Source: an uncultured Fimbriimonadaceae bacterium
Lineage (GTDB): Bacteria > Armatimonadota > UBA10988
NCBI GenBank assembly: GCA_964405335.1
Contig: CAYONP010000020.1
Span: 2,069-66,068, forward strand
Reading direction: 5' to 3'
DNA: 64,000 nucleotides
This document shows, one piece after another, positions 23,393-42,506 of the stretch. The position numbers were made by a program, and so were the translations under genes. Numbering within the stretch: position 1 is the first letter of the stretch; each line of letters opens with the position of its first letter. The notes beneath the pieces are model-generated. The model worked only from the letters and a program-made list of their open reading frames with translations, ran no database searches and had not been told where the DNA came from.

Positions 23393-23457
23393 CTCCCGGC
23401 GGCGTATTGTGGACCGGCAAGTCCATTGCAGCGGGCGCGACGCGTGAGGAGGGCGCG

Positions 23458-24846: not shown

Positions 24847-24855
24847 GAGGCGGGC

Positions 24856-25992
24856 ATGAACCCCGATGAACTGCTGGCGCCCCTGACGCCCCGCGGCCTG
24901 CCCGCGCCGGTGGCGTTCCTGATGTTCTTTCGCGTGGTCGGGTTCATCCTCCACCTGGCGCCGATGCACTTGGTCTATGCCGGCACGCCACTGGTCGCGG
25001 TGCTGGCCTGGCGCCGCCGGGCCGAGGCGCGCACCCTCGCCGCGCGGCTTGGGCGCGTGCTCCCGGTGGCCGTCGCCCTGGCGGTCAACTTCGGCATCGT
25101 GCCGCTGCTCTTCGTGCAGACGACGCACTACCGCGTGTTCTATCCGGCGACCATCCTGATGGCCTGGCCCTGGATGCTGGTCATCGCCTGGCTGATCACG
25201 GCCTACTACGCGATCTACTTCTTCGCCGGGCAGGTGCGTGCCGGCGAGCCGAGCCGATGGGCGAAGCTGTGGCTCGGCCTGGCCGCCGTGCTGGTGGTGC
25301 TGATCGGCTTCACCTTCGCCAACGCGATGAGCCTGACCAGCAACGTCGCCGCCTGGTCGCCGCTGTATGAACAGACCAACGTCAGCGGCGCGGTCACCGG
25401 CTTGGCGCTGAACACCGCCGACCCGACGCTGCCCGCGCGCTGGCTGATGATGTTCGGTCTGGCGATCACCACCGTCGGCGCCTGGATTGCGCTCGACGCC
25501 GCCTGGTCTGCCGGCGGCGAGAGCGATGACTACCGCGCCTGGGCCGGCCAGGCGGCCTGGCGGGTCTACGCCGGCGGGCTGGTCGTCTTCGCCGTCTGCG
25601 GCTATCTCTATCTCGTGCGCACCATCCCGCTCGAGGACACGCAGGCGATCTTCGCGCCGCCGATGCGCTATCTGACGCTGCTCACCGGCGCGCTGCCCGG
25701 CGTGGTCCTGGTCTTGGTCTGGTGGCGGCGCAACCGGCCGTCGGCAGGCGGGGCGGCGTGGGTCTTCGCGGGGCAGTTGCTCGTTCTGGCGCTCAACGCC
25801 GTCTCGCGCCAGGCGCTGCAGAACCGCGAGCTGGACCCGTACTTCAATCCGCACCTCGAGCAGGTCACCACCCAATGGTCGACCTTGCCGCTGTTTCTGG
25901 TCGTCTTCGTGGCCACGCTGGGATTTGTTGCCTGGATGTTGGTTCGGGTGGTGAAGGAGAGTGGAACAGATTCGGCGGATTGGCCTTCATGA
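24856..25992 (+). CDS. polytopic membrane protein, putative cytochrome bd subunit II-like partner
   Basis: 378 aa with ~8-9 predicted TM helices. CydB-like size. 10 bp downstream of the CydA-like gene. Confidence 0.5.
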   Translation: MNPDELLAPLTPRGLPAPVAFLMFFRVVGFILHLAPMHLVYAGTPLVAVLAWRRRAEARTLAARLGRVLPVAVALAVNFGIVPLLFVQTTHYRVFYPATILMAWPWMLVIAWLITAYYAIYFFAGQVRAGEPSRWAKLWLGLAAVLVVLIGFTFANAMSLTSNVAAWSPLYEQTNVSGAVTGLALNTADPTLPARWLMMFGLAITTVGAWIALDAAWSAGGESDDYRAWAGQAAWRVYAGGLVVFAVCGYLYLVRTIPLEDTQAIFAPPMRYLTLLTGALPGVVLVLVWWRRNRPSAGGAAWVFAGQLLVLALNAVSRQALQNRELDPYFNPHLEQVTTQWSTLPLFLVVFVATLGFVAWMLVRVVKESGTDSADWPS

Positions 25993-26057
25993 ATAGGGAC
26001 GCCGGTCCGAACGTCTAGCCATAGAGCCGGATGCGGGCGGGGTGGCGGGAGGTGGCG

Positions 26058-26720
26058 ATGCGAGGCTGGTGGCCGCTCGCGTTGATCTGTGTCGGCTTGA
26101 CGGCGAGGGCGCTCGAGTCCGAAACCACGTGGTATCAGCCGGCGTTGGCCTACGAGGCCATCCCGTACGGACCCGAGTTCCGCTTCCAGGCCGAGTTCGG
26201 CGACGAGGTCGACCGCAACGCCTTCGTCCGGCACGTGCTCTCCCGGCACCTCGGTAACATCACCGACCAGCAGTTCGACATGATGAGCCTGCTCGCGCCC
26301 GAGGATGGGCTGATGGGCTTCCTCGCCCGCGGCACCAAGCTCGGCCTGGTCACCGGCTCGGCTGGCTATGTGCTCGGTGTGCTGACCGACGCCGCCGATC
26401 CGGGAACCATCGGCGCGGTCACGCTGGCCGGCGGGTTCTTCGCCGGCGCGCTGGGCTATGCCGACGGACCGTCATCGTTCACCCTCCGCTGCGGCGAGTC
26501 GAGCGCCTGCCGGCTGGTGCTCGGTTGGCAAGAGAAGCCCGGCTATCTGCCCCGCGCGGTGCCCGGCTTCGCCGGCAGCGGCGTCAACGGCAGTTTCACC
26601 GCCGGCGCCAGCCTGACCTTCGGCGGGCTCGACGGCGGGCCGGCTGCAGCGCTCTTCTGGGACCCGTTCGCCGCCGGTCGTTCGAGCCTCGGCGGGCTGT
26701 CGCTGACCGCCTCGTTCTAG
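26058..26720 (+). CDS. secreted Gly-rich hypothetical protein
   Basis: Signal peptide MRGWWPLALICVGLTARA at an internal start. Gly/Ala-rich C-terminal half. No family recognised. Confidence 0.45.
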   Translation: MRGWWPLALICVGLTARALESETTWYQPALAYEAIPYGPEFRFQAEFGDEVDRNAFVRHVLSRHLGNITDQQFDMMSLLAPEDGLMGFLARGTKLGLVTGSAGYVLGVLTDAADPGTIGAVTLAGGFFAGALGYADGPSSFTLRCGESSACRLVLGWQEKPGYLPRAVPGFAGSGVNGSFTAGASLTFGGLDGGPAAALFWDPFAAGRSSLGGLSLTASF

Positions 26721-27553
26721 CCGGGCGGCGGGACCAGTGCCTCGGCCAGCGGCCGGGCGGTGTCGACGTAGAAGACGTACTTGATCCAGTAGCTCCGCGC
26801 ATCCTTGGCCGGGTGCAGGCCGACCTTGTGCAGCCCCCCGTCGCGCGGGATGCGCAGGCTGAAGCCGAAGCTCTCGCCCCGCTTGACCGCAACGTTGCCG
26901 ACCAGCTCGGAGTCGACCGCCAGGTAGACACGGCCGGTCTCGCGCAGCAGCCGGGCACGGCCCCAAACCACCCAGTCATTGCCGCGCTGTTCGAGGGCGA
27001 CGTTGTGGAAGTCGTAGTAGTGGACGCCGAACACCTGGGTGGCCATGTGCGTGCCGCCGCGACTGAACACCCCGACGCCGAGGTGGGTGTACTGCGGGTC
27101 GAGGATGTTGGCCCGGTGTGGCGGCGAGTTCATCCAGCCGTCGCGTGAGTACATGAACCAGCGGGCCAGCTCCTCGGTCGCCATGCCGCCGCCGCCGAGC
27201 CGCACGAAGGCGATGTTCTCGGCCACGAACGCCTCCCAATAGCCGGCCCGCCAGGCGCGCTGGCCGGGTTCGCGCCAGGCGTCGTGCGGCGCGTCGTGGG
27301 CGAAGTAGTCTTCGAGCACCATCTCGCGGCTGTGCTGCCGCGCGGCGACCTGCAGCGAGGCCAGCGGCCGCAGCTCGGGGATGTCGCGCCGTCGCCGCTC
27401 GTCGTTGACCATCTCGAGAATGCGCTGTTCGACCGCCGGGGTGCCGGGGTGCTCATCCTCGCTCCAGAGCGGCCGGAGGAAGACGCGGTTCGGCTCCTGC
27501 GCGGCAGCGGGCAGGGCGGCGAGCAGAAGCAGCAGGATACGGGCCCAGGACAT
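26717..27553 (-). CDS. secreted CAP (SCP/PR-1-like) domain protein
   Basis: Signal peptide MSWARILLLLLAALPAAAQ. CAP motifs HSREMV...YFAH and GHY-like HTHLGVGV. Confidence 0.7.
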   Translation of the reverse strand: MSWARILLLLLAALPAAAQEPNRVFLRPLWSEDEHPGTPAVEQRILEMVNDERRRRDIPELRPLASLQVAARQHSREMVLEDYFAHDAPHDAWREPGQRAWRAGYWEAFVAENIAFVRLGGGGMATEELARWFMYSRDGWMNSPPHRANILDPQYTHLGVGVFSRGGTHMATQVFGVHYYDFHNVALEQRGNDWVVWGRARLLRETGRVYLAVDSELVGNVAVKRGESFGFSLRIPRDGGLHKVGLHPAKDARSYWIKYVFYVDTARPLAEALVPPPG

Positions 27554-27662
27554 GGCGTCGCCTCTCACGGGCTGGATCATAACCTGAGACGCGTCGCCGC
27601 GCACCGAGGTGCTGAACGGGCATTGAACGGCCGCAGATGCTCCTGAACCGCCTGCCGAGCGG

Positions 27663-27691
27663 TTGACGACCGGCCGGTCGGGCGCTATTCT
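27663..27691 (+). promoter_or_regulatory. candidate sigma70-like promoter upstream of aspartokinase (weak)
   Basis: TTGACG, 17-nt spacer, TATTCT, ending ~25 nt upstream of the GTG start at 27716. Confidence 0.3.
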
Positions 27692-27715
27692 GCCGGCGCG
27701 GACGCGGCGTGAACG

Positions 27716-29038
27716 GTGACTGAGCGTTGGGTGTGCAAGTTCGGCGGCACGTCGGTGGCCGACGCCACGCGCGTCGACCAGGTGCGGCGGATTCTGGCCG
27801 CCGACCCGCGCCGCTCGGTGGTCGTGGTCTCGGCTCCCGGCAAGCGCAGCGACGAAGACCAGAAGATCACCGACCTGCTGCTCATCGCCAAGCGGCTGGC
27901 CGCCGCCGAGCTGAGCTTCGACGCGCCGCTGCGGGTGATCGCCGAGCGGTTCGACGAACTCGCCGCCGACCTCGACGTGCCCGACCTGGCGGGCCCGCTG
28001 ATCGATGAGCTATGCCAAGGGCTGAACAACGGGCAGGGCGAGGACTGGGTCGCCAGCCGCGGTGAGGCGATGTGCGCGCGAATCGTCTCGGCGGCCTTGG
28101 AGGCGACCTACATCGAGCCGTACGAGACGCTCGGCATCGACGCCACCGGGCGGCCCACGCCGGACAGCTACGAGCGCCTGGCGCTGGCCGTCGCCGACGA
28201 GCCGTTGGCGGTGGTGCCCGGCTTCTATGGCCGCGGGCCGACCGGTGAGGTGAAGGTCTTCACCCGCGGCGGCAGCGACATCACCGGCGCCGTGGTGGCC
28301 CGCGCCATCGGCGCCACGGTGTACGAGAACTGGACCGACGTGTCGGGCCTGATGATGGCCGATCCGAAGCTGGTGCCGCAAGCCAAGCCGATGCGCGAGG
28401 TGACCTACGACGAGCTGCGCGAGCTCAGCTACATGGGCGCCCGCGTGCTGCACGAAGAGGCGGTGCTGCCGGTCCGTGGCGTCGGCATCCCGATCCACAT
28501 CCGCAACAGCCTGCGGCCCGACGACCCCGGCACGATGATTGTGCCCGACCGCGACCCGCGCCGGCAGCCGGTGATCGGCGTCGCCGGCGAGGCCTGCTTC
28601 ACCGCCGTGCATGTCTACAAGACGCTGATGAACCGCGAGCGCGGGTTCGGCCGGCGGCTGCTGGGCATCATCGAAAGCCACGGGATCAGCTTCGAGCACA
28701 GCCCCACCGGCATCGACTCGATGTCGGTCGTGCTGCGCGACGACGAGCTGGGCCACAAGATCGATCTGGTGGTCACTGAGATCCAGCGCGTGCTGCAGCC
28801 CGAGCGGATCGAGGTCCACAGCGGCCTGGCGATGATCGCCCTGGTCGGCCTGGGCATGGCCCACCAGGTCGGCATCAGCGCGCGGCTGTTCGGCGCGCTG
28901 GGCGCCGCGGGGGTTAATGTGCAGCTAATCTCGCAGGGCATCTCTGAGCTGAGCATCATCGTCGGTGTGGCCAAGGCCGATTTCGCCGCCGCGGTGCGGG
29001 CGATCTACGCGGCCTTCGCCGAGCTTGGGGAGGGCTGA
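27716..29038 (+). CDS. aspartate kinase
   Basis: 440 aa. KFGGTSVA N-terminal kinase motif, VVVVSAPG, C-terminal ACT domains. GTG start. Confidence 0.9.
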   Translation: MTERWVCKFGGTSVADATRVDQVRRILAADPRRSVVVVSAPGKRSDEDQKITDLLLIAKRLAAAELSFDAPLRVIAERFDELAADLDVPDLAGPLIDELCQGLNNGQGEDWVASRGEAMCARIVSAALEATYIEPYETLGIDATGRPTPDSYERLALAVADEPLAVVPGFYGRGPTGEVKVFTRGGSDITGAVVARAIGATVYENWTDVSGLMMADPKLVPQAKPMREVTYDELRELSYMGARVLHEEAVLPVRGVGIPIHIRNSLRPDDPGTMIVPDRDPRRQPVIGVAGEACFTAVHVYKTLMNRERGFGRRLLGIIESHGISFEHSPTGIDSMSVVLRDDELGHKIDLVVTEIQRVLQPERIEVHSGLAMIALVGLGMAHQVGISARLFGALGAAGVNVQLISQGISELSIIVGVAKADFAAAVRAIYAAFAELGEG

Positions 29039-30054
29039 TGCGCTGGATCGAGTTCCCCGACCCACGGCTCGCCGTCTTCGGCCTGCCCTGGTTCGCCGAG
29101 AACTCGCCCGACCTGTTCCGCCTGCCCAAGTCGCGCCAGGCCCGCTACCGCGAGGCTGTCTGGCACCTGGCCAAGTCGCCGGCCGGGGGGCGCATCCGGT
29201 TTGTCACCGACGCCAACGAGCTACGCATCCGGCTCGACTACGGCGACGTCGGGCACATGAACAACATGCACCGGATCGGCCAGCACGCCGTCGACTGCTA
29301 CGCCGACGGCGTCTTCTGGCGCAACGCCGCGCCGGCCGAGGAGGGGCAGAGCGAACTCGAAACGACGCTCTACTCGGGCGTCGGCACGGCGACACGGGCG
29401 ATCGACCTCTACCTGCCGCTCTACCACCACGTTCGCGTGGTCGCGGTCGGGCTCTCCGACAACGCACTGATCTCCCCCGCTCCACCCTTCGCCCACCCTC
29501 TGCCGGTGGTCTTCTATGGCTCCAGCATCACCCAGGGCGGCTGCGCCAGCCACAGCGGGAACAGCTACCAGGGCATCCTCTGCCGCGACTTGAACCTCGA
29601 TCAGGTCAACCTCGGCTTCAGCGGCAACGGGCTGGGCGAACCCGAGCTGGCCGAGGCGATGGCCGACATCGAGGCGTCGGCCTATGTCGTCGACTACTCG
29701 CAGAACTGCCCCACCGTCGAGCAGATGGCCGAGACCTACGGCCCGTTCCTGCGCATCCTGCGCGAGGCGCGGCGCGACACGCCGATTCTCTGCCTCACGC
29801 CCATCAGCGCCGCGCCCGAGGCCTGGTCGGCCACCACGCGCGAGACCCTCGAGGCCAAGCGCGAGGTGGTTCGGCGCGCAGTGATCATGCGCCACCAAGC
29901 CGGCGACCAGCGGGTCCAGGTGATCGAGGGACCGGCGCTGCTCGGGCCCGACCAGATGGACGGCATCGTCGACGCGAGCCACCCCAACGACCTCGGCTTC
30001 TGGCACATGGCCAATGGGTTGAAGCGCCCACTCGCCGGAGCGCTCGGGCTCTAG
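29038..30054 (+). CDS. SGNH/GDSL-family hydrolase (esterase)
   Basis: Block I GDS-like (VVFYGSSITQGG) and block V DASHPND (Asp-x-x-His). The ATG overlaps the aspartokinase stop. Confidence 0.7.
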   Translation: MRWIEFPDPRLAVFGLPWFAENSPDLFRLPKSRQARYREAVWHLAKSPAGGRIRFVTDANELRIRLDYGDVGHMNNMHRIGQHAVDCYADGVFWRNAAPAEEGQSELETTLYSGVGTATRAIDLYLPLYHHVRVVAVGLSDNALISPAPPFAHPLPVVFYGSSITQGGCASHSGNSYQGILCRDLNLDQVNLGFSGNGLGEPELAEAMADIEASAYVVDYSQNCPTVEQMAETYGPFLRILREARRDTPILCLTPISAAPEAWSATTRETLEAKREVVRRAVIMRHQAGDQRVQVIEGPALLGPDQMDGIVDASHPNDLGFWHMANGLKRPLAGALGL

Positions 30055-30066
30055 CCGAGGTGCCGC

Positions 30067-31068
30067 ATGACCCCCCGCGAGCGATTCGAGGCGGCAATCG
30101 CCGGCCGGCCGGTCGACCGCCTGCCCTGCCATCCGCTGACCATGACCTTCGCCAGCCGGCTGATCGGCCGGCCCTACCGCGACTATGTCCACGACCACCG
30201 CGTGTTGGCCGCCGGTCAGCTCGCCGTCGCCGAGACCTTCGGCATCGACTTCGTCTCGGTGATCAGCGATCCGTGCCGCGAAGTCGACGACCTGGGCGGC
30301 GAGTGCACCTACTTCGACGACGAGGCCCCGGCCTGCGACAGCCGCCGCGCCCTGCTGGCCGAGAAGACCGACCTCGCTCGCCTGCAGCCGCCCGACCCGC
30401 TGGGAGGCGGGCGGATGCATGACCGCGTGAACGGCGTGGCGCTGCTGCGCGAGCGCGTTGGGCCCGACTTCCCGGTCCTCGGCTGGGTCGAAGGGCCGAT
30501 CGCCCTGGCCGTCGACCTGCGCGGGATGCAGGCGCTGATGCTCGACACCGTCGACGACCCCGAGTTCGTGCGCGACCTGTTCGCCTTCGCCGTCGACCTC
30601 GAGATCGAGTTCGCCCGCGCGCAGGTCGCTGCCGGGGCCGACTCCATCGGCATCGGCGATGCCGCCGCGTCGCTGGTCGGCCAGACGTTCTACGAGCGCT
30701 ACGTGCTGCCCGAGGAGCGGCGGCTGGTCGACGCGATCCACTCCCTCGACGCGGCGGTGCGACTGCACATCTGCGGCAACACCTCGCACCTGTTCGCCGG
30801 CATTGCCACCCTCGGCTGTGAGCTGGTCGACATCGACTACACCGCCGACCTGGCCGCCGCCCGCGCGTCGATGCCGACCACCGCGCTGCTGGGCAACCTC
30901 GAGCCGGCCCGTTACCTGCTCCGCGGCACGCCCGACGAGGTGACGGCCAAACTGGCCGAGTGCCACGCGGTCGCCGGCGATCGGTTCGTTGTCGGCGCCG
31001 GCTGCGAGGTGCCGAAGTTCAGCCCGCACGAGAACGTGCGGGCGATGGTCCGGTACGCGGCGGCCTAG
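30067..31068 (+). CDS. uroporphyrinogen decarboxylase (URO-D) family protein (MtaA/CmuA-like)
   Basis: 333 aa. URO-D fold conservation (PLTMTFASRLIG; VRLHICGN). Confidence 0.75.
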   Translation: MTPRERFEAAIAGRPVDRLPCHPLTMTFASRLIGRPYRDYVHDHRVLAAGQLAVAETFGIDFVSVISDPCREVDDLGGECTYFDDEAPACDSRRALLAEKTDLARLQPPDPLGGGRMHDRVNGVALLRERVGPDFPVLGWVEGPIALAVDLRGMQALMLDTVDDPEFVRDLFAFAVDLEIEFARAQVAAGADSIGIGDAAASLVGQTFYERYVLPEERRLVDAIHSLDAAVRLHICGNTSHLFAGIATLGCELVDIDYTADLAAARASMPTTALLGNLEPARYLLRGTPDEVTAKLAECHAVAGDRFVVGAGCEVPKFSPHENVRAMVRYAAA

Positions 31069-31225
31069 GCGAGGATGTCCCGCCAAGACGACCTGCTGGC
31101 GGGGGTCGGCGTGTGCCAAGAGTGACCTCGGGGAATTGGTGAGCTACCTCGGTCCGCCCGGGTTGCGCAGCCGGCGCCCTCGCCGCGGGCCAGGTTGAGG
31201 GCCAGCACGCGAGCCACCGAGCAGC

Positions 31226-32065
31226 TCAGCCATCTGCGGCGTCCAGGTCTGCTATCAACCCCGGCCCTGAACCCGCGCGCAGCTCCCGCAACAAGTCTTG
31301 CGCAACCATATCAACCCGGACATCACCATCATGCCCCGTCCTCCTAGCCAGAAACTCCAACGGCCGGATCAAGCTCGAGATCGCTCCAGCGAGCTCCTCG
31401 TCAGGCCCGCCGCTCCGCGCGACCCGAGCCAGTAGGCCGATACCGACTAGCAAATCCATCCACGCCGGATGCCCCGACCAACCCGCCAACGCACGGTCGC
31501 GCGGGGATCTCCGCGACAGCGCGAGTATCTCTTCAAGCAAATCACGGTCTGTCCTGCGCGCACTCGCCCCGCCCCTGCCACCCACCGCGAGCGCCTCGTT
31601 AACTTGCTTCAGTAGCTTGGGCCACCACATGTCGAACACAGGTTCCAACACCTCCGGCGGCAAAGCAGCATCTGCCAGTTCGTTATTGATCATCTTGACG
31701 ACGCGCCTCATCTCCTCTTCCGAGAATCTCGCGGCCTGAAACTGCACCAAGGGGCCCGTAACATCCGCGGGCTGCATACCTTCAAAAAGGAGAGGGCAGA
31801 CCTTGGCTTGATCCACACTCTTGGCAAGGGCACCCGCCTCGAACAATAGCCAAGGAGCGTTATGACTCTCCGTCGTAATAACCAGTAGACCAACACAACT
31901 CGCCTCAAGCTCATTCGCGATCTCCGTAGACCAACGTGATCCCTTCGCGACGTCATCTGGACTGAAATAGGGGCGGACAGCCTGAAGCACGCTAGGCAAC
32001 CACTGCCGGAGTACATCCGCCACCGCCCGGCTTCGCTCACCAGACCAGCTGATGAAGACTCTCAT
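31226..32065 (-). CDS. TIR-domain protein (putative NADase; ThsB-like) with C-terminal alpha-helical extension
   Basis: Start at internal ATG (MRVFISWSGERS) with GGAGAAAG Shine-Dalgarno 7 nt upstream. FISWSG..., SRWSTEIANELE (W-x3-E putative catalytic Glu) and LLVITTES are canonical TIR blocks. The C-terminal ~140 aa are helical and uncharacterised. Confidence 0.85.
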   Translation of the reverse strand: MRVFISWSGERSRAVADVLRQWLPSVLQAVRPYFSPDDVAKGSRWSTEIANELEASCVGLLVITTESHNAPWLLFEAGALAKSVDQAKVCPLLFEGMQPADVTGPLVQFQAARFSEEEMRRVVKMINNELADAALPPEVLEPVFDMWWPKLLKQVNEALAVGGRGGASARRTDRDLLEEILALSRRSPRDRALAGWSGHPAWMDLLVGIGLLARVARSGGPDEELAGAISSLIRPLEFLARRTGHDGDVRVDMVAQDLLRELRAGSGPGLIADLDAADG

Positions 32066-32154
32066 ATCTTTCTCCCCGCATGTCGCCTGTTGCTCTGTAC
32101 AGACGACCCACGGCACTGTCGCTTCATGAGCGAAGCTGCGGCGTCGGGCCTCTT

Positions 32155-33123
32155 TTATGTGAGAATCTGTTGGAGGATTACCATCGCAGCTGCTCGGATC
32201 TGTTCTGACTGGTGGTCCAGCACCCTGAACTTCTCCGGCCAGTTAGGATCCTGCGGCGCCTTAAGTTCCCGCCAGTATAACTTCAGGACTCTCTCAGTTC
32301 GCTCGACCTGCTGCATCGCGCCGGCCAGGTCGCCGCGCCCGATGGGCTCATCCGTTATCTCGCCAAGGTCGACCTTCTTCATGGTGCGCATTGGGCGCAC
32401 ACCTTGCATGCCCTGAAGGAGGATCACGATCGTCTGCTCGTAACCATACCAACGCTGACTAACCAATGCGGTCTTTAGGTAGTCGTGACCGATCGCAAAG
32501 AACTCGGACCTAGGCTTGTCAGTGATCTTGCGCAGGCCCTGAGCCTCAGCTGGAAACCAGTTATAGAGCAAGCCGTATGTGCCGTATGTGTCAATTAGCT
32601 GCTTTGCGCTGTTGAGCGGCACCGTGATTTCGCCGATGCAGAATTCTGCTTCGCCGGAATATACGGCGTCCGGGATTTGTTCGAATGTGTCCAGCACGCG
32701 TGTTCCGGCACTGCCCGCGTAATCGAAATCTCCAGGGATGAGCCAGTAGACGTCATAGACAGTAGTGCGCTGGTCAAAAGCATATCCGAGTCCATGCAGC
32801 CACATCTGACAGGTGTCCACGCTCCAGGCATGGAGCACAGTGGACTGTTGCTCCACCTCAGTTGACATTAAACGTAGAAAGGTAGGGTTCTGTGAGTTGC
32901 GATGGAAGGTCTGCCGATTCACAACGGTTATTGGACGCGCATAGCGCGAGGGAGCTGCAGCTAGTTTCGTGATGAGGTTGGCATACAACGCCTTAAGATG
33001 CCGGTCATCACGTGGTTGACTGAAAGGGTAAATGACAATCGGGTGGATTCTCCTGCTCTGGGGTGTTGACGCATCCCCGCTTGGAGCTGCCAGGGTGTCT
33101 GGTTGAGTCGTTGAGTTCGGCAT
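32155..33123 (-). CDS. hypothetical protein, TIR-operon partner (no recognisable family; predicted alpha/beta Rossmann-like)
   Basis: 322-aa ORF 86 bp upstream of the TIR gene on the same strand. Lowest GC in the window. Alternating buried beta-strand-like segments (IVIYPF, ITVVN, VYWLIPGDFDYAGSAG, TIVILLQG). Confidence 0.6.
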   Translation of the reverse strand: MPNSTTQPDTLAAPSGDASTPQSRRIHPIVIYPFSQPRDDRHLKALYANLITKLAAAPSRYARPITVVNRQTFHRNSQNPTFLRLMSTEVEQQSTVLHAWSVDTCQMWLHGLGYAFDQRTTVYDVYWLIPGDFDYAGSAGTRVLDTFEQIPDAVYSGEAEFCIGEITVPLNSAKQLIDTYGTYGLLYNWFPAEAQGLRKITDKPRSEFFAIGHDYLKTALVSQRWYGYEQTIVILLQGMQGVRPMRTMKKVDLGEITDEPIGRGDLAGAMQQVERTERVLKLYWRELKAPQDPNWPEKFRVLDHQSEQIRAAAMVILQQILT

Positions 33124-33720
33124 ATGCTCCAGTCGCTCCCAAACCGCGGTTGCCGTTCACGCCGCCAGGCAAGCGCGGCCCAGCAGATCCTGTTCGCCCT
33201 CTACCCCTTTTGGGTAGCGTACCGTCTTGGGAAGGCGCTGTCAATGGACGTTGTGGCGTCCTCCTGGCCTGAAGTTGGCGGCTTGCGAGTAGCAGCCTCT
33301 GGTCGCACCTGACGCCACGCTGCAAGTTGATTGATGGCTGGATACAGTGGCCCGCCCTTTCCAGCTACGCCAGGTGGACGAACAGCACCTCTCCGCACTG
33401 CCGGTGCTCCGTCGTTGACGGCGGACTGTTGGATACCTCTGGTTCGCCCGTGCCTGGCGCGCCGGCGAGTCCTCGCAGACCGCTAGCGACATCCGCGCAT
33501 GCGCCTGTTTGGCGAGATTGAGGACTGACAGGTCAACCTGGCCGCGCGCGTCGCGCACCTGCCAACGCTGCTCAGCGGCAGGGCCGGCAGTCGCTCGGCG
33601 GCTTGCCTGGCGGCTGAACCGGAAACGGCTGGCTGTGAGTGCGCGCAGCAGGACGCCCATCGCGCTGTGCGTGGGAAGCGGCGGACGAGGTTCTGCCCTT
33701 CGCCCGGCGTATAGCCCGCC

Positions 33721-35619
33721 ATGACCGCACGGGTCGTGCTGCTGGGTCTGGTGTTGGTGCCGCTGCAGGCGTTCTGGACCGTCCACATGGAGCTGGTCCG
33801 CGACGGCATCTTCCCCTCGGTGCTCAGCCTGCTGTTCACCGTCGTCTTCCTGCTCTTCGTCGTCTGCCTGGCCAACCTGGCGGTGCGCCGCGTGGCTCCG
33901 CGGCTGGCGCTGCGCGGCGACGAACTGCTGGCGCTCTACATTGTGCTGGCCGCCGGAGCCAGCCTGACCGGCTGCGACGTCGGCCAGACGCTGGTCCACC
34001 TCGTCGGCGCGCCGTACCGCCTGGCCACGCCCGAGAACGCTTGGTCACTGCACTTCCACCGCTACCTGCCGAGCTTTCTGCACCTCGACGACGCGGCCGT
34101 GCTGGAGGGCTTCTACGAGGGCGCCAGCTCGTTCTATCAGTGGCGCATCACGCGGTTCTGGCTCGGGCCGATCGCCAACTGGATGATCTTCTGCGGCCTG
34201 ATGCTGCTGGCCATGCTGGCGACCAATGTGCTGGTCCGCCGGCAGTGGGTCGAGCACGAGCGGCTGACCTTCCCGATTGTCCAGGTGCCGCTCGGCATGA
34301 CCCTGCAGCCCGGCTTCTGGAGCCACCGCGGGCTCTGGTGGGGCTTCGCCGTCGCGGCGTCGATCGACCTGGTCAACGGCCTCAACGCGCTCGTCCCGTG
34401 GGTGCCGCGGATTCCGTGCAAGCAGTTCATCTTGCTCGGCACCCTGACCAGCAGCAAGCCCTGGACCGCGGTCGGCTGGTGGCCGGTGACGGCCTATCCG
34501 TTCGCCATGGGGATCGGCTTCTTGATGCCGCTGGAGATGAACTTCTCATGCTGGTTCGGCCTGCTGCTGTGGAAGGCGCAGAAGGTCGTCGCGATGCAGC
34601 TCGGCGTCGACACCGGCTGGCTGCAGGCGCTGTACCAGGCCGAGCAGGTCAGCGGCGTCTGGCTGGCGGTGCTGCTCTTCGCCGCCTGGAGCGGCCGGCA
34701 CCACTGGCGCGCGATGTGGCATGGCCTGTGGCGCGGCGAGACCGCCGCCGCGCGGGTCGAGCCGTTCGGCGTGCGGACCTGGGCGGCGCTGGCGGTGGTC
34801 GGCTGGGCGGGGATGATCGTCTTCGGCGCGCGGTCGGGGATGAGCGCCGGCTTCGCCGCCGCCTACTTCACCGTCTACCTCGGCTTTTCGCTGGCGCTGA
34901 CGCGGATGCGGGCAGAGTTCGGCCCGCCCTGCCACGACCTGTTCGGCGCCGGGCCCGACCGGACCTTCATCACCTGGCTCGGCGGCCGCGGCATCGCGCC
35001 GCGCAACCTGGCCTCGACGGCGGTGTTCTACTGGCTCAGCCGCGAATCGCCGCGCAGCCACCCGATGCCACCCCAGCTCGAGAGCCTGTTCCTCGCCTCG
35101 GGCGGCCGGCTCAGCCTGGCTCGCGTCGCGCCGGCCATCTGGCTGTTCGGCTGCCTCAGCGCGCTGGTCACCTTCTGGGCGGTGCTCCACTTCGGCTACG
35201 ACCTGGGCAGCCAGGCCAAGTTCCGCGGCCCGGCCACCTGGTTTGCCAGTGAGGGCTTCAACCGCCTCGACGCCTGGCTGGTCAGCCCGCCCGAGCCGCA
35301 GGCCGGGCCGCGCATCGCCATGGTCGCCGCCTTCGTGCTCAGCCTGCTCTGCCTGGTGCTACGCACGCGCTGGCTCGGCTTCGGCTTCCACCCCGCCGGC
35401 TACGCCATCTCGAGCTGGTGGGCCATCAACCTGCTCTGGTTCCCGCTGCTGATTGCCTGGGCGACCAAGCTGGTCATCTTCCGGTACTTCGGCGGCCGCG
35501 CCTACCGCCACGCCCGGTGGTTCTTCATCGGCCTGATTCTCGGCGAGTTCGTGGTCGGGTCGCTGTGGCAGCTCGCCGCGATGATCTGGCGGACGACGAC
35601 GTACGCGTTTTGGATCTGA
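33721..35619 (+). CDS. large polytopic membrane protein (Trp-rich; possible glycosyltransferase-C-fold or transporter-like), unknown function
   Basis: 632 aa with more than 12 hydrophobic helices. Confidence 0.6.
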
Positions 35620-35671
35620 GCGGCGAGAAGGAGCGCCGCCCGACGCGGCGAACCGACGTTCGCGCGAGGAG

Positions 35672-36655
35672 ATGGTCATGGCCAAGGTGGTGGGTGAGCC
35701 GTTGCCGAACATCCCGTGGGAGGATCGGCCGGCCGGCTCGAGCGAGGTCTGTTGGCGCTACAGCGGTAATCCGGTCATCCCGCGCGATGCTATTCCCTGC
35801 GCCAACAGCATCTTCAACAGCGCGGTGGTGCCCTATCTGGGCGCGTTTGCCGGCGTCTTTCGGATCGATGACCGCGCGCGGCGGATGCAGCTCCACGCCG
35901 GCCGCAGCGCCGATGGCCTGCACTGGGAGCTGGCGCCGGAGCCGATCCAGTTCATCGCCGACGATCCCGACATCGGGCGGTTCGAATACGGCTACGACCC
36001 GCGGGTGGTCTGGCTCGAAGACCGTTACTACGTGACTTGGTGCAACGGCTATCACGGACCGACCATCGGCGCGGCCTACACGCACGACTTCGCCTCGTTC
36101 TACCAGCTCGAGAACGCGACCGTGCCGTACAACCGCAACGGGGTGCTGTTTCCGCGGCGGATCGGCGGCAGCTTCGCCATGCTGCACCGCCCGAGCGACC
36201 GCGGCCACACGCCGTTCGGCGACATCTTCTACAGCGAGAGCCCCGACTTCGTGCACTGGGGCCGTCACCGGCATGTGATGAGCCCCGCGGGCGGCTGGGA
36301 GTCGACCAAGATCGGCGCCGGGCCGATTCCCATCGAGACCGACGAGGGCTGGCTGCTGATCTACCACGGCGTGCTGACGAGCTGCAACGGCTATGTCTAT
36401 AGCGCCGGTGTGGCGCTGCTCGACCTCGAACAGCCCTGGCGGGTGATCGGCCGCGGGAGGTACTACATCCTGAACCCGAGCACGTACTACGAGTGCGTCG
36501 GCGATGTGCCGAACGTCGCCTTCCCCTGCGCCGCGCTGTGCGACGCGCCGAGCGGCCGGCTGGCGATCTACTACGGCGCCGCCGACACCGTTGTGGCGCT
36601 CGCCTTCGCCTACGTCGACGAGCTGATCGACCACCTACGGCGGTACCCGCGCTAA
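35672..36655 (+). CDS. GH130-family glycoside phosphorylase/hydrolase (beta-mannoside phosphorylase-like)
   Basis: 327 aa. GH130/DUF377 five-bladed propeller hallmarks ([42 protein letters not shown]). Confidence 0.8.
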
Positions 36656-36657
36656 CC

Positions 36658-39342
36658 GTGCGCACCGTTGTTCTGGCCGACGCACCCAGACTGGCCTTGC
36701 CGGCCGACTGTGACGACTTCCGCGTGGTCACGCCGAATGCGCAGGCGGCGCGGGCGCTCGGGGTGCCGAAGTGCGACTTCCGCACGCTGGCCGTGGCGGT
36801 GCTGCGCGGCCGGGGCATCCGCTTGGCACCAGAGCCGGCGGCCCACCGCGCTCTCCGGCGGGCCGTGGCCAAGGTAGGCTTCGCGAGCCCGGAGCGCTTC
36901 GCCGCCGTGCTGGAGCCGTCGCTCAAACGCGTGATGCGCAGCGGTGCCGGCCTCACCGTGCTGCTCCAACACGGCGGCCGGGCGGCGCGCCTGGCCGAGG
37001 TGATCGGGGTCTACCGCGAGAAGCTCGGCGACAAGCTGATCGACGAGGCCGACGCGCTGCACCGCGCCGCTGAACACCCGCCTGAGCAGGCGCGGATGCT
37101 GGTCTATGGCTATCCACGCCTGGACACCGACGAGCTGGCCCTGCTCGACGCCGTCGCCGGCGACGGCAGCCTGCTCATCCTGCCCGGCGGCGAGGCGGCG
37201 CTGTTCGACGAGAGCCGGCAGATCGCCGAGGCGCTGGCGCAGCGTGGCTGGCAGGTCGAGCGCGCGACGGCCCGCGGCGAAACGGTCGGCGACCGGCTGG
37301 CGGCGCGGTACCTCGGCGGGCAAATCGAAGTCGCGGTGACCGGCCACGGATACCCCGACGACGAGGCCGAGGTGCGCGGGGTGCTGGCGCAGGTCAAGCG
37401 TCGCCTGCGCGACGGCGTGGCGCCGAGCGACATCGTGCTGATCGCGCGCGATGAGCGGCACTACGAGCCGATCGTGACCGCGGTGGCCGAGGAGTATGGC
37501 CTGCGCGTGCGGCCGGGCTATCGGCGCCCGTTGACCGAGACGCGGCTCGGCGGCTGGCTGGCCCTGCTGCTCGAGGCGCTGGCCGAGGGCCGGCCGTTCG
37601 AGCCGACGCTGCGCCTCTACGGCTCCGGCCTGCTCGACGACGTCGAGCCGGAGCAGCTTGCCGACCCGCGCCGCGAGCGGGCGGTCGGCGCGCGGTGGGA
37701 CGCCTACGCGCTACCGGTCATCGTGCCGTTGGGCGGCCTGCCCGACCAGCAGTCGATGCCGAGCTGGACCGCCTGGCTGCGCGGGCTGATTGAGTCGCTC
37801 GACCTGCGCGGGCGCCTGGCCGCCTGGCCGCGCGAGTTGTACGCGCTCGCGTTGCTGCTCGACGGCCTCGGGTACCTGGGCGACGCCGGCGCCGTTCCGG
37901 CCCGGTGGTTTGCCGCCGAGGTGCTCGACCTGCTCGGCGCGCTGACCGTCGAGTCGGCGCCGGGTCGCGGCGGGGTGGAGCTGCACACGCCGTTGGCGGT
38001 CTACGGCGCGACGATCCCGCACCTCTTCATCCTCGGCGCGGTCGAGGGCCGACTGCCGGCGGCGGTCGACGATGACCCGTACCTGGACTTCCACCTGCGC
38101 GAAGCGCTGGCCCGGCGCGGGGTGCCGCTCGAGCTGGCCGCCGACGCGGCGCGACGCGAGGAGCTGTCGCTCCACACCCTGCTCCTGACGGCCGCCGGCG
38201 AGGTGGTCATCTCGGTGCCGCGCAGCATCGGCGGGGCCGCGGTCCTGCCCAGCCCGCTGGTCGAGCGGCTGGGCCTGAGCCTCGTCGCGCCGCCGGTGAT
38301 TCACGCCGCACCGCGCGAGGTGCTCCGAGCCGACCTGGCCGCCGCGACGGGACCGATCGCCGAGCAGGCGCGGCGCGCGGCAAGGGTCGAGCTGCGCCGG
38401 GAGTCGTCGCAGGCGCATGACCATCACGACGGCCGGCTCGGCCGGGCGGTTGACCCGCCGGGTGCGTTCAGCATCACGCAGTTGACCGCGTTGGGGCAGT
38501 GTCCGTTCAAGTGGTTTACCGAGCGGCGCCTGGGCCTGGCCGAGGCCGAAGAGGGCCTGGCCGAGCCCGACGCGCGACTGACCGGCAGCCTGGCGCACCG
38601 CGCCCTGGAGCTGGCCGGCCGGGCCGCGGCGGCCGCCGGCGCGGCGGACGAGCGGGATGTCTGGGTCTACTACCTCCCCCACGCTCTCGACCTGGCCGCC
38701 GGCCAGGCGGGTGAGTCGGCGGCGGCGCGCGAGGTGCTCGACGTCGCGGGCGAGCCCGAGCCCGACGCCGATGAGCCGGAGCTGCACCAACTCGGCCGGC
38801 TCAGCCACTGGCCGCTGCTGCGGCAGGAGTGGCTCGAGGTGCTGACACGCGCGGTCGAGGTCGACTCCTTCTGGTCGGCCGGCGTGCCGACCGAGTTCGA
38901 GTGCCGCTTCGATGAGGACTGGCACGGGCTGCGCCTGCGCGGCGTGATTGACCGCATCGACCTGCTCGACAACGGCGGCGCGGTGCTGTTCGACTACAAA
39001 ACCCGCAGCGGCACCGACCGGCCAACCGGCGTGCAGGACGAGACGGGCAAGGCGCGGCTCGACCTGCAACTCACCGCTTACGCCGAGATCTACGCCGAGC
39101 TGAGCGGCGAGCCGGCGGTCGACGCCCACTATCTCAATCTGCGCTCCGCCCAGCGGGCGAAGGACCCGAGCGAGGCGTCGCGGGTCGACGGGGCAGCCTT
39201 CGCCGGCGAGGTCATCGAGCGCTTCGGCGCCGGCGACTTCGCCGTCGAGCCCGACGGCGCCCGCGAGGCCTGCCGTTACTGCGACCTAACCCTAGTCTGC
39301 CGGATCGGCCCGCGGCTGGAGCGGAAGCGAGGGGCGGAATGA
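36658..39342 (+). CDS. AddB-like helicase-nuclease subunit (inactivated helicase plus PD-(D/E)XK nuclease with Fe-S Cys cluster)
   Basis: GTG start 2 nt after the GH130 stop. C-terminal RecB-family nuclease (VIDRIDLL...LFDYKTRSG...QLTAYAEIY) and CRYCDLTLVC. AddA follows with a 4-bp overlap. Confidence 0.7.
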   Translation: MRTVVLADAPRLALPADCDDFRVVTPNAQAARALGVPKCDFRTLAVAVLRGRGIRLAPEPAAHRALRRAVAKVGFASPERFAAVLEPSLKRVMRSGAGLTVLLQHGGRAARLAEVIGVYREKLGDKLIDEADALHRAAEHPPEQARMLVYGYPRLDTDELALLDAVAGDGSLLILPGGEAALFDESRQIAEALAQRGWQVERATARGETVGDRLAARYLGGQIEVAVTGHGYPDDEAEVRGVLAQVKRRLRDGVAPSDIVLIARDERHYEPIVTAVAEEYGLRVRPGYRRPLTETRLGGWLALLLEALAEGRPFEPTLRLYGSGLLDDVEPEQLADPRRERAVGARWDAYALPVIVPLGGLPDQQSMPSWTAWLRGLIESLDLRGRLAAWPRELYALALLLDGLGYLGDAGAVPARWFAAEVLDLLGALTVESAPGRGGVELHTPLAVYGATIPHLFILGAVEGRLPAAVDDDPYLDFHLREALARRGVPLELAADAARREELSLHTLLLTAAGEVVISVPRSIGGAAVLPSPLVERLGLSLVAPPVIHAAPREVLRADLAAATGPIAEQARRAARVELRRESSQAHDHHDGRLGRAVDPPGAFSITQLTALGQCPFKWFTERRLGLAEAEEGLAEPDARLTGSLAHRALELAGRAAAAAGAADERDVWVYYLPHALDLAAGQAGESAAAREVLDVAGEPEPDADEPELHQLGRLSHWPLLRQEWLEVLTRAVEVDSFWSAGVPTEFECRFDEDWHGLRLRGVIDRIDLLDNGGAVLFDYKTRSGTDRPTGVQDETGKARLDLQLTAYAEIYAELSGEPAVDAHYLNLRSAQRAKDPSEASRVDGAAFAGEVIERFGAGDFAVEPDGAREACRYCDLTLVCRIGPRLERKRGAE

Positions 39343-42300
39343 GGCTCACGCCAAACCCCGAGCAGCAGGCGGCGGCGAGCCATCCCTCCAGCCTGGCGGT
39401 GACCGCCAGCGCCGGCACCGGCAAGACCGCGATGCTGGTCGAGCGTTACCTGCACCATCTGCTGGCCGGCGGTCTGAGGCCGCTGCAGGTGGTCGCCGCG
39501 ACGTTCACCGAGAAAGCCGCGGGCGAACTGCGCGAACGGGTGAGGAAGCGCCTGCGCGAGGAGTTGGGTAGCGCCGACCCGCGGCTGGCCGAGCTCGATG
39601 CCGCGCCGATCGGCACGCTGCACAGCCTGGCCGCGCGGATCTGCCGCGAGCATCCCGAGGCGGCCGAGGTCGCGCCGGGGTTCGTCATCCTCGACGAGAC
39701 CGAGGCACCGATCTGGTCGCGCCAGCGGGTCGATGAGCTGCTGACCCGCCTGCCGCCCGAGCGGTTCGCCGGCCTGCGCTGGAGCCTGGCTCGCGCGGCG
39801 GTGCACCGGCTGCTGGACGAGCCCTTCGTGGCGGCGCAGGCGCTGGAGCGGGTGACTCGTCCGTGGGCCGAGGTGCGCGCCGAGTGGGCAACCTGGGCCG
39901 CGGCCGAGCGCGAGGCCGGCCTGGCCGAGCTGACCGCGCCGCCGTGGGACGAGACGGTCGGCTTTCTGCGCAGTGTCCGCGGCGCTTCAGACGACGGCGC
40001 CGAGATCGCCCGCCAGACCATCCTCGACGGCGTCGAGCTCTTCGAGGCGGGTGAGTTGCGGCCCGGCTTGGAGCTGATGGCTTCGGCCGACCTGCGCTAC
40101 GGTCGCAAGGCGGCCTGGCGGTGCGACCTGGCCGAGGTGAAGGCGGCCCTGAAACTGCTCTGCGAGCGGGCCCGCAAAGCACGCAAGGACGGCCGCGCAA
40201 CGGCCGAGGTGACCGACCTCGACGAGCATCACCACAGCCTGCTGCAGCGCTTGCGCGGGTTGGTCGAGACAGTCGGCGGCGGCCTGAGCGAGCTGAAGCG
40301 CCAAGCCGGCCTGCTCGGCTACGCCGACCTCGAGACCGGCGCGCTACTGGCGCTCGGGCGCGAGGATGTGCGCCGCTGGTATGCCGAGCGGTGGCAGGCG
40401 ATTCTGGTCGACGAGGCGCAGGACGTCAACCCGACCCAGGCCGAGCTGCTGCGCCGGCTGCGCGATCTCGAGCCGGCGCCGACGCTGACCGCGGTCGGCG
40501 ACGTGAAGCAGTCGATCTACGGCTTCCGCCACGCGCGGCCGGAGGAGTTCGAGGCGCTCGGGCACGCACTCGGCGCGCCGCACCGGCTGAGCCGCACCTA
40601 CCGCCAGCACCGCCCGCTGGCCGAGACGCTCAACGCCCTATTCGCGCCGGTTCTGGGTGAGCAGCACGCGCCCGTGGAGTCCGAGCGTGAACCGCCGCAC
40701 CCCGGCCGCTACGTCGAGCTCGCCGTGGTGGCCGAAAAGGCCTCGGCCGCGACCGGCCGTCAGGCCGAGGCGGCTTATCTGGCTGCGCGACTGACCCAGT
40801 GGCTCGGCCAACTGCCGGTCCACGACCGGCAGGCCGACTGCGTCCGGCCGCTCGAGCCGCGTGACGTGGCCGTGCTCTCGCGCGCCTGGCAGCCGCTCGA
40901 TCTGTTCGCCGACGCCTTCGCCGCGGCGGGCATTCCGGTGGTCCACCACGGCGGCGGCAGTCTGCTCGCCACGCGCGAGGCGCTCGACGGCATCGCACTG
41001 CTGCGCACGCTGTGCGATCCGGGCGACCGGCTCGCGCTGGCGGCTGTGCTGCGCGGGCCGATGTGTGCCGTCGATGACGTTGCCCTCGACGACTTGGCCC
41101 GGCCCGGCGACCAGCCCTGGCCGAAGCGTCTCGACGGCATTGCCGCGGCCGCCTGGCTCGCCGAGCTGCGCAAGATGGCCCGGTGTGAACCGCCGTCGCG
41201 GCTGCTCGAGCGGGCCGACGAGCTGACCGGCTACAGCGCGGTGCTGGCCAATCTGCCGCTGGCCGAGCGGCGGCTGGCCGACTGGCGCGGCTTCATCGCC
41301 GCCGTGCGCGAGGCCGAACGGGGGCACCTAGACCTGTTCGCCATCGTGCGCTGGCTCCGCCAGTTGCTGGAGGCCGGCGTCGAGCTGCCGCGGCCGTCGC
41401 TCGAGGCGCACGACGCGGTCAGCCTGGCGACCATCCACTTCGCCAAGGGGCTCGAGTGGCCGGTGGTGATCGTGCCCGACCTGTCGCGCCAATCGCGAGG
41501 CAACGACCCGCGTCTGCGGCTCGACGCGGCGCGCGGCGTGGCGCTCGACCTGCCGCTGCCCGACGATCAGCCGCAGCCGTTCCTGACCTGGCTGCTGAAA
41601 GCGAACGACAAGCAGCGCGAGGCCGATGAGCTGAAGCGGCTGGCCTACGTCGCACTGACCCGCGCCCGCGACCGGCTGCTGCTCACCGCCGGCCGCACGA
41701 GCGGCGGCAGCTCGCTGCTTGAGCTGCTCTCCGAGCCGCTGGCCGCCGCCGGTGTCACCGCCGACGCCATCCCCTTCGACCCGGCCGCGCCGCTGCCCGA
41801 GCCGACGGTCAAGCCGACGACTGGCCCGGCACCCGAAGCGGTGCTGCTGGAGCGGCTGCAGACGGGCCTCGACGAGGTGGTCGCCTCGGCGCTCGACCTC
41901 TACGAGCGCTGTCCGCGCCGGTTCTGGTACGACCAGGTCGAAGGCCATCCCGGCCTGCCGGTCGACGGCGAGGGTGGTGAGGCGCGGCGCATCGGCATCC
42001 TGGTCCATCACGCCCTCGAGCACGGTCTGCGCTCCGGCGCGGAGTTGCGCCTGCAGGATGCGGCGATCTCCGACGACGGCCTCCAGCACGCGCTGGCGCT
42101 GCTGGCGAGTTGGGATCAACACTCGGCCTTCGCCGCCGTCCGCGAGGCCGCCGCCGAGCCGGAGGTCGAGCAGGTCGGCGAGCTGCACGGCGTGCGGCTG
42201 ACGGCGCGGATCGACCGCCTCGCCGGCGAGTTCGTGCTCGACTACAAGACCGGTCAGACGGCCGTTGCCGAGACGCACGACCTTCAGCTCTGGGCCTATG

Positions 42301-42506
42301 CGCGGCTGAGCGGTCGCCCGGCGGCATACGTCGCCGACCTCGAAACGCCGCGCCTGCTGGCCCTCGACCCAGCGCGGGTCGATGCGCTCGAGGCACGCGC
42401 CGAGGCGGTGCTGAGCGGCATCCGGCAGGGCGAGTTCGAAGCCCGGCCCGGCGAGGCGACGTGCCGGGTTTGTCCCTACTCGGCGGTCTGCCCGGCGGCG
42501 GTGTAG
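39339..42506 (+). CDS. AddA/UvrD-family ATP-dependent helicase-nuclease
   Basis: 1055 aa. Walker A (ASAGTGKTAML), UvrD motifs (ILVDEAQDVNPTQAELL; TYRQHRP; SIHFAKGLEWPVV) and a C-terminal PD-(D/E)XK (IDRLAGEFVLDYKTGQ). Confidence 0.85.
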   Translation: MRLTPNPEQQAAASHPSSLAVTASAGTGKTAMLVERYLHHLLAGGLRPLQVVAATFTEKAAGELRERVRKRLREELGSADPRLAELDAAPIGTLHSLAARICREHPEAAEVAPGFVILDETEAPIWSRQRVDELLTRLPPERFAGLRWSLARAAVHRLLDEPFVAAQALERVTRPWAEVRAEWATWAAAEREAGLAELTAPPWDETVGFLRSVRGASDDGAEIARQTILDGVELFEAGELRPGLELMASADLRYGRKAAWRCDLAEVKAALKLLCERARKARKDGRATAEVTDLDEHHHSLLQRLRGLVETVGGGLSELKRQAGLLGYADLETGALLALGREDVRRWYAERWQAILVDEAQDVNPTQAELLRRLRDLEPAPTLTAVGDVKQSIYGFRHARPEEFEALGHALGAPHRLSRTYRQHRPLAETLNALFAPVLGEQHAPVESEREPPHPGRYVELAVVAEKASAATGRQAEAAYLAARLTQWLGQLPVHDRQADCVRPLEPRDVAVLSRAWQPLDLFADAFAAAGIPVVHHGGGSLLATREALDGIALLRTLCDPGDRLALAAVLRGPMCAVDDVALDDLARPGDQPWPKRLDGIAAAAWLAELRKMARCEPPSRLLERADELTGYSAVLANLPLAERRLADWRGFIAAVREAERGHLDLFAIVRWLRQLLEAGVELPRPSLEAHDAVSLATIHFAKGLEWPVVIVPDLSRQSRGNDPRLRLDAARGVALDLPLPDDQPQPFLTWLLKANDKQREADELKRLAYVALTRARDRLLLTAGRTSGGSSLLELLSEPLAAAGVTADAIPFDPAAPLPEPTVKPTTGPAPEAVLLERLQTGLDEVVASALDLYERCPRRFWYDQVEGHPGLPVDGEGGEARRIGILVHHALEHGLRSGAELRLQDAAISDDGLQHALALLASWDQHSAFAAVREAAAEPEVEQVGELHGVRLTARIDRLAGEFVLDYKTGQTAVAETHDLQLWAYARLSGRPAAYVADLETPRLLALDPARVDALEARAEAVLSGIRQGEFEARPGEATCRVCPYSAVCPAAV

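Follow-up and report, generated by a model that had tools for sequence, protein, structure and literature searches.

Among the described anti-phage systems, the closest to the locus studied here is the three-gene hotspot system of the P2-like phage AC1 (called AC1 below), which was cloned by Rousset et al. (2022), protects against lambda, LF82_P8 and P2, and for which signalling to its transmembrane (TM) proteins was proposed (PMC9122126). DefenseFinder names this system Rst_2TM_1TM_TIR, and according to a survey the full AC1-type system is essentially never detected, in agreement with its absence here. The DNA analysed in this work, called the window throughout, is a stretch of 64,000 nucleotides from an uncultured Fimbriimonadaceae bacterium (contig CAYONP010000020.1). 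In a short segment of low GC content it carries a gene for a TIR-domain protein and, immediately upstream on the same strand, a gene for a 322-amino-acid (aa) protein, called the partner below. A previous sequence-only reading had interpreted the two as an undescribed, Thoeris-like system composed of a TIR protein and an unrecognisable partner. Our analysis suggests that the window TIR is, judged by its sequence, a relative of the TIR component of AC1 that stands outside the three-gene system. On balance, the segment probably holds two functionally unrelated cargo genes, a solo TIR abortive-infection gene and a gene for a GT-A-like carbohydrate enzyme, in one cassette.

Co-occurrence of the two genes and origin of the cassette

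The genomic surroundings of the partner were studied in 84 loci, 80 from GTDB species representatives (mostly metagenome-assembled genomes of Verrucomicrobiota) and four from metagenomes. A tblastn search of these 84 loci with the window TIR gave no hit, and the converse search with the partner gave none in 162 TIR loci, among them 116 whose upstream sequence exceeds 1.2 kb. The result was the same among the nearest relatives of both genes: a TIR gene is found in none of the six distinct contexts of the closest partner relatives (at least 73% identity; L001/2, L008-L011, L253/4), and the partner gene is found in none of the 12 TIR loci that share the C-terminus of the window TIR. A lack of co-occurrence elsewhere had been named beforehand as an outcome that would refute a two-gene system, and among about 250 loci the adjacency of a GT-A gene and a TIR gene was seen in the window alone. 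With the pair in 0 of 84 and 0 of 162 loci, the proposal of an undescribed system made of TIR protein and partner is not supported. Nothing supports a local functional link between the two genes, and the most plausible reading of the GT-A gene is that of a passenger with a carbohydrate-related function.

It is unlikely that the GT-A-like protein and the TIR protein nevertheless form one new two-component Thoeris-like system, in which one of them senses or makes a signal and the other executes. The genes are adjacent and co-directional, lie 89 nt apart with no terminator, and were acquired jointly in a 2.6-kb cassette with matching GC content at third codon positions (GC3). A chemical lead also exists, in that GT-A enzymes bind nucleoside diphosphate (NDP) sugars and ADP-ribose is chemically an NDP-sugar. 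Against a shared function stand, apart from the missing co-occurrence, the conserved neighbour of the partner family, which is a CBM48 gene, the residence of that family in Verrucomicrobiota, its absence from phages, plasmids and viral contigs, the lack of a PADLOC match for the partner, and the solitary state of the TIR family nearly everywhere.

The features of the locus, in window positions, are the following.

31226-32065, minus strand: gene for the TIR protein of 279 aa, which ends in a predicted helical domain and belongs to a stand-alone family of the AC1 'TIR-TM' type (Pfam, PADLOC, PHROGs, AlphaFold2, Foldseek).
31586-32065, minus strand: TIR domain, residues 1-160, with W72-x-x-x-E76 (homologue alignment).
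31229-31570, minus strand: predicted helical domain at the C-terminus (residues 166-279), free of TM segments (AlphaFold2 model).
32155-33123, minus strand: gene for the 322-aa protein with a predicted GT-A fold (mannosylglycerate-synthase-like), of a sequence-isolated family.
32066-32154, minus strand: spacer of 89 nt with the Shine-Dalgarno sequence GGGGAG of the TIR gene and without a terminator-like site (sequence read, terminator scan).
31060-33683, no strand: strain-specific low-GC cassette of 2,624 bp, in place of 3.5 kb of other DNA present in the sister genome L250 (GC content, tetranucleotides).
33124-33683, no strand: non-coding stretch of 560 bp upstream of the GT-A gene, GC 0.67, absent from L250, with no homologue among the fetched loci, no Rfam match and no promoter-like site.
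30067-31068, plus strand: left flank, native URO-D-family gene with its end rewritten by the insertion (Pfam URO-D, 2.2e-59).
33721-35619, plus strand: right flank, native gene for a DUF6785/DUF6784 polytopic membrane protein (Pfam, 1.3e-130 and 3.4e-25), syntenic in L250.

In 400-bp intervals the GC content falls to 0.54-0.60 between about 31600 and 33200, and on both sides it is 0.68-0.75. The segment 31060-33683 has a GC content of 0.606, compared with a mean of 0.709 (sd 0.021, minimum 0.645) for other 2624-bp intervals of the window (z = -4.9), and its tetranucleotide distance to the remaining window is 0.469, whereas other intervals average 0.185 and reach 0.302 at most. GC3 is 0.66 in the TIR gene and 0.64 in the partner gene, and 0.90-0.96 (about 0.92) in most native genes.

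A sister genome (L250), located by way of the URO-D protein and its cluster at 90% identity, is 98% identical in nucleotide sequence (blastn) to window positions 22067-31059 and 33684-38189 and is unrelated in between. The borders of the island were placed at 31060 and 33683 because identity to L250 stops at 31059 and resumes at 33684. The left breakpoint falls in the final ~10 codons of the URO-D gene, whose product ends in MVRYAAA in the window copy and in MVEYASELTGGQSE in three relatives. From the comparison with L250 and the rewritten URO-D end it follows that the window state is derived, with 2,624 bp of foreign DNA in place of native DNA. The island is a horizontally acquired foreign cassette, and the insertion site between the URO-D and DUF6785 genes is strain-variable. 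In these respects our results confirm the sequence-only reading, which had described a low-GC island of about 2.6 kb, acquired horizontally, containing two co-directional minus-strand genes (33123->32155 and 32065->31226), the latter with a good Shine-Dalgarno sequence, and flanked by genes for a URO-D-family protein and a polytopic membrane protein.

L250 carries other cargo of 3.5 kb at the same site (L250 8994-12517), consisting of three minus-strand genes that encode proteins of 153, 517 and 431 aa. The 153-aa gene has a low GC content (0.60), and the 517-aa and 431-aa genes have native GC content and signal-peptide-like N-termini in their products; none of the three gave a Pfam or PADLOC match. 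Searches in and around the island revealed no convincing flanking direct or inverted repeats, tRNAs, integrase, Rfam RNAs, promoters or terminators, and none of the fetched loci contains a homologue of the island's non-coding parts.

The TIR protein and its family

The reading frame 32065->31226 has GGGGAG ahead of its ATG, and the start at 32065 is supported by the homologues, which open with the same M(K/R)VFISWSG. The earlier assignment of a TIR domain proved correct: Pfam TIR_2 matches the protein at 6.8e-09, over its cut-off and as the sole Pfam domain, and a catalytic-type Glu is present. It also matches phrog_13899 at 3.8e-68 and the PADLOC model PDLC03016 ('TIR-TM') at 4.9e-68, the latter aligning residues 1-187 with model positions 1-191 of 293. 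Neither W72 nor E76 varies among 51 aligned homologues, and in the plant TIR 3jrn the counterpart of E76 is the Glu of 'WCLDEL'. It is in such a WxxxE context that TIR NADases have their catalytic glutamate. In the AlphaFold2 model (mean pLDDT 80.5), the nearest folds identified by Foldseek are the NADase TIRs of SPARTA, AbTir, TIR-STING and ThsB, the last with an E-value of 8e-3. The C-terminal domain is predicted to consist of helices 173-186, 200-218, 223-242 and 249-276, and no hydrophobic or TM segment was found in it.

The model name 'TIR-TM' could be taken to denote a TM-containing TIR protein or a component of CBASS or a retron, which was ruled out by a scan of the AC1 proteins. In that phage, P2_AC1, gp02 matches PDLC03016 at 2.7e-118 over model positions 1-286, and of the two genes that precede it, gp03 matches the '1TM-TIR' model and gp04 the '2TM-TIR' model. 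An anti-phage role of the window TIR is plausible, because it matches this PADLOC model, whose type member is part of a system validated by experiment. Thus the idea of a defence cassette holds, as a plausible one, for the TIR gene, and is not supported for a two-gene system.

The TIR family yielded 2,225 matches, and it occurs in at least 511 confirmed metagenome stretches, 79 IMG/VR viral contigs and 11 plasmids. Its members are mostly 244-345 aa long (range 170-384) and have no TM segment. The TIR half is strongly conserved, and the C-terminal domains belong to several mutually unalignable types: the window type with 13 sequences (the window and 12 other fetched loci), the AC1 type with 18, and the type of phage mEp390 with one. 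The 51 aligned homologues, which are 49-62% identical to the window TIR, retain every key residue and have an identity of 61% in the average column, which speaks for an active protein under purifying selection. The higher GC content of the C-terminus raised the possibility that a TM domain had been truncated and that the frame now reads through into native DNA. This was rejected, since homologues keep the whole 280 aa (coverage 87-100%) and, according to the comparison with L250, the entire TIR gene lies within the cassette.

Neighbours of the family were counted in 159 loci. Tyrosine integrases are the commonest (13 loci), and next come terminase subunits and HNH proteins. With a top frequency of 13/159, none is recurrent enough for a partner, and among 103 neighbours of TIR relatives no cyclase family is present twice. 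Toxin-antitoxin modules or other defence genes adjoin members of the family. Loci with the window-type C-terminus are located after hisD, beside HicAB, ParE-like or PIN toxin-antitoxin genes, with an integrase and a capsid gene, or beside a SIR2-TIR fusion. The TIR family is a large, cross-phylum, prophage-borne cargo of mobile elements that is almost everywhere solitary.

Two loci of the family deserve description. In the lambdoid phage mEp390 (L252 3501-4319), the TIR homologue gp47 is a reverse-oriented moron between the antiterminator Q and holin genes and bears bidirectional rho-independent terminators. In another locus (L088 5447-6769, L249 6731-8053), a gene for a 440-aa fusion of SIR2_2 and TIR_2 follows, at a distance of 109 bp, a close homologue with 63% identity to the window TIR; the fusion combines ThsA-SIR2 and ThsB-like matches in one chain, and PIN and HigB toxin-antitoxin genes flank the pair. 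The window itself encodes, at 59573-61387 on the minus strand, a 604-aa SIR2_2-domain protein (reduced GC3, 0.78). In PADLOC this protein matches PDC-S65, a candidate single-gene system, at 3.3e-72; from its sequence, its gene probably serves in NAD-linked defence as well, at a distance of 28 kb from the TIR gene.

The window TIR is improbable as a ThsB-like signal generator with its effector encoded elsewhere, for example by this SIR2 gene. Distant relatives of about 39% identity adjoin a TM-Macro ThsA in 2-3 of the 159 loci, which is the type II Thoeris arrangement, the signalling model proposed for AC1 points in the same direction, and the SIR2 protein, which in addition to its PDC-S65 match has a weak similarity to ThsA-SIR2, is encoded in the same window. 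However, the SIR2 gene is distant, its product has no SLOG or Macro domain in Pfam, and its best match is a single-gene candidate system; the window TIR has no ThsB-model match at E<=1, and most family members have no candidate effector nearby.

There is similarly little probability that the TIR gene has no immune role, as decaying or neutral cargo or through another NAD-linked function. No prophage or integrase lies near the island in this host, as such a reading would have it, but the reading frame is intact with a good Shine-Dalgarno sequence, the conservation among the 51 homologues argues for purifying selection, and the family is strongly tied to mobile elements and defence neighbourhoods.

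The partner protein and its family

In the reading frame of the partner (33123->32155), GGAG is located 5 nt ahead of the ATG. The public annotation of 32155-33123 is apparently truncated, the identical protein P0016 having 237 aa and starting at Met86; homologues are conserved from about residue 24 ('IHPIVIYPF', with strand 1 of the fold). N-terminal extensions of the homologues P0053, P0056 and P0065 contain no Pfam domain and are probably due to miscalled starts.

The partner matched nothing in Pfam and NCBIfam (E<=1), PADLOC, PHROGs or, with phmmer, the PDB, and profile searches of the PDB with a close profile (A1) and a broad one reaching down to 23% identity (A4) gave chance matches only. 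Its structure was predicted with AlphaFold2 from 60 homologues at high confidence (mean pLDDT 92.2, pTM 0.88). Two methods assigned the model to the GT-A (nucleotide-diphospho-sugar transferase) fold, and in Foldseek it aligned with mannosylglycerate synthase at a TM-score of 0.56. Residue D132, invariant down to 23% identity, ends the strand 125-130, which we take to be the place of the DXD motif in GT-A enzymes; in the partner's 'PGD132-F-x' the third position is variable, so that the second Asp of DXD is not conserved. The protein, which had been considered unrecognisable, is thus recognisable by its predicted fold and is best read as a GT-A glycosyltransferase-like protein.

The family gave 1,764 matches in 90% clusters. 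It is compact and isolated in sequence, because just 224 clusters at 50% identity matched in an exhaustive scan of 1.84 billion representatives, and it was absent when sought in plasmids, phages in culture and IMG/VR contigs. Sufficient downstream sequence was available for 82 loci, and in 59 of them a gene encoding a protein of about 94 aa follows the partner homologue on the same strand at a distance of 6-135 bp, and this product is a CBM48/AMPK-CBM glycogen-binding module (Pfam, 6.3e-10). An example of this operon of GT-A and CBM48 genes is found at L014 6001-7253, and 58 further loci fall within L016-L087. In the loci of Verrucomicrobiota type the difference between gene and host GC content is about 0, which argues that the gene is resident there. 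The CBM48 operon in Verrucomicrobiota suggests a carbohydrate (alpha-glucan-type) role of the partner, over one in immunity.

The window partner belongs to a minority clade of the family, with 53-83% identity to members from Acidobacteriota, Pirellulaceae, Ignavibacteriota, Thermoanaerobaculia and others, in which the CBM48 gene is absent. In this clade (>53% identity, about 10 loci) the GC content of the gene is off that of the host by 0.06-0.24, and because of this departure we consider that the clade moved horizontally between phyla. Its neighbours comprise GT2 and GT1 genes and a low-GC protein with an N-terminal TM segment (L001/2), an integrase with ORF6N (L004), an insertion sequence (L020), a DUF5615 toxin-antitoxin pair (L010) and a 157-aa TM protein (L009). 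A 261-aa protein encoded downstream of the closest partner homologue (L001) was considered as a TIR protein or a relative of the window TIR and rejected (BLASTP E 0.11, no Pfam or PADLOC match). A 2H-phosphoesterase-like gene with two HxT motifs (L254 4457-5161; Pfam 2_5_RNA_ligase2, 4.6e-06) begins 18 bp after a GT-A homologue of 79% identity (L253/4), with a 416-aa gene upstream.

We regard it as very unlikely that this mobile clade is defence-island cargo, either as an enzyme modifying surfaces or nucleic acids or as a module with interchangeable small effectors. The departure of its GC content from that of the host would fit such a role, as would neighbours that include an integrase with ORF6N, an insertion sequence, toxin-antitoxin genes, proteins with an N-terminal TM segment and the 2H phosphoesterase; on the other hand, the downstream genes are mutually unrelated and none has a PADLOC match, L003, L008 and L012 have no co-directional neighbour, and the clade comprises only about 10 loci. 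A still bolder version, in which the clade would be an immune component handling an NDP-sugar-like (possibly ADP-ribose-derived) molecule, whose interchangeable downstream effectors may be the TIR-helical protein here, the N-terminal-TM proteins of L001 and L009 and the 2H phosphoesterase of L253, is the least probable of all, although if true it would make the window pair a genuinely new TIR-based two-gene system.

Two further features of the window concern neither gene: a DUF1559/N-methyl pseudopilin-type protein, which taken alone would hint at a Planctomycetota-like host, is encoded at 61918-62679 (minus strand), and an AddAB-type helicase-nuclease pair at 36493-42506 (plus strand), where PADLOC GajB matches reflect the generic UvrD helicase core only.

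Proposed function and comparison with known systems

According to the reading that we prefer, two unrelated cargo genes, a foreign cassette of 2.6 kb took the place of native DNA between the URO-D-family and DUF6785 genes. The TIR gene would encode a self-contained anti-phage protein, with an NAD+-cleaving N-terminal TIR domain and a C-terminal helical domain that varies between lineages and that may sense a phage cue or keep the protein inactive. Upon infection, the TIR domains would associate with each other into a composite active site and consume NAD+, and with the loss of NAD+ the infected cell would cease to support phage growth, an abortive infection. The GT-A gene would encode a nucleotide-sugar-dependent glycosyltransferase-like enzyme from a family resident in Verrucomicrobiota.

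Several points weigh against this proposal. The sample of genomic contexts covers about 250 loci of about 4,000 homologues. The two genes are only 89 nt apart on one strand, have no terminator between them and similar GC3, lie in one replaced segment, and may be co-transcribed. The NADase activity of the window TIR is predicted from its motifs, and the GT-A assignment derives from a predicted structure in which the second Asp of DXD is not conserved. Furthermore, the AC1 genes were cloned together, so that the sufficiency of the TIR gene on its own is an assumption, and the experimentally validated relative, AC1, lies outside the window-type TIR clade.

Our findings indicate that adjacency inside a low-GC islet is no evidence of a system, and they remove a tempting false positive. 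Defence databases list AC1-type TIR proteins under a three-gene system, although conservation of its membrane partners is practically never seen. The most useful by-product of this work is the idea that AC1-type TIR-helical proteins act as single-gene systems; if one gene suffices, few TIR immune units would be smaller, and they would have the swappable C-terminal domain as the probable determinant of specificity. The operon of GT-A and CBM48 genes in turn defines an uncharacterised, sequence-isolated enzyme family in Verrucomicrobiota.

Compared with characterized glycosyltransferases, the partner is only 7-14% identical to the mannosylglycerate synthase of GT78, the glucosyl-3-phosphoglycerate synthase of GT81 and the mannosyl-3-phosphoglycerate synthase of GT55, has no profile-level link to a PDB chain or to Pfam, and differs from these enzymes in the CBM48 operon partner of its family.

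With Thoeris, the window TIR shares a TIR domain with the catalytic-type Glu and the few relatives of about 39% identity beside a TM-Macro ThsA, but no ThsA, of either the SIR2-SLOG or the Macro-TM kind, adjoins it, its actual neighbour has a predicted GT-A fold and no PADLOC match, and none of the PADLOC ThsB models matched it at E<=1. It differs from CBASS and Pycsar in that the island and its flanks encode no CD-NTase or pyrimidine cyclase and that no SAVED, STING or CNB domain is fused to the TIR. Because there is no ThsA, no cyclase and no sensor domain, the locus does not qualify as Thoeris, CBASS or Pycsar. SpbK of ICEBs1 resembles the window TIR in concept, being a solo TIR NADase on a mobile element that causes abortive infection by depleting NAD+ (PMC11984713). 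Between SpbK, the architecture and trigger of which are described in the literature, and the window TIR no sequence relation was detected, and for the latter PADLOC gives TIR-TM only.

The likeness to AC1 is closer. The TIR proteins are 39.8% identical over window residues 1-185, both consist of an N-terminal TIR domain, a linker and a helical C-terminus without TM segment, and both are cargo of mobile elements. In contrast, the 1TM (PDLC02977) and 2TM (PDLC02978) genes are absent from all of the roughly 250 loci studied and from the window, whose host is an environmental bacterium of 70% GC, whereas AC1 is a P2 prophage. The C-terminal domains are not homologous, model positions 192-293 being unmatched and the window C-terminus finding no AC1-type locus. 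A tblastn search for homologues of AC1 gp03 and gp04 found none in the window or in the other TIR loci, including 17 with the C-terminal type of AC1. When the AC1 locus itself (L251 2803-4948) is set beside L143-L199, the neighbours of AC1-type TIR genes are integrase and terminase genes. Because the 1TM and 2TM genes are not conserved beside other TIR genes, the three-gene definition may over-specify what is a single-gene system. What is new at this locus is best read as a TIR gene that belongs to a known defence family but stands solo and carries an uncharacterised domain at its C-terminus, located beside an unrelated gene of an uncharacterised GT-A family.

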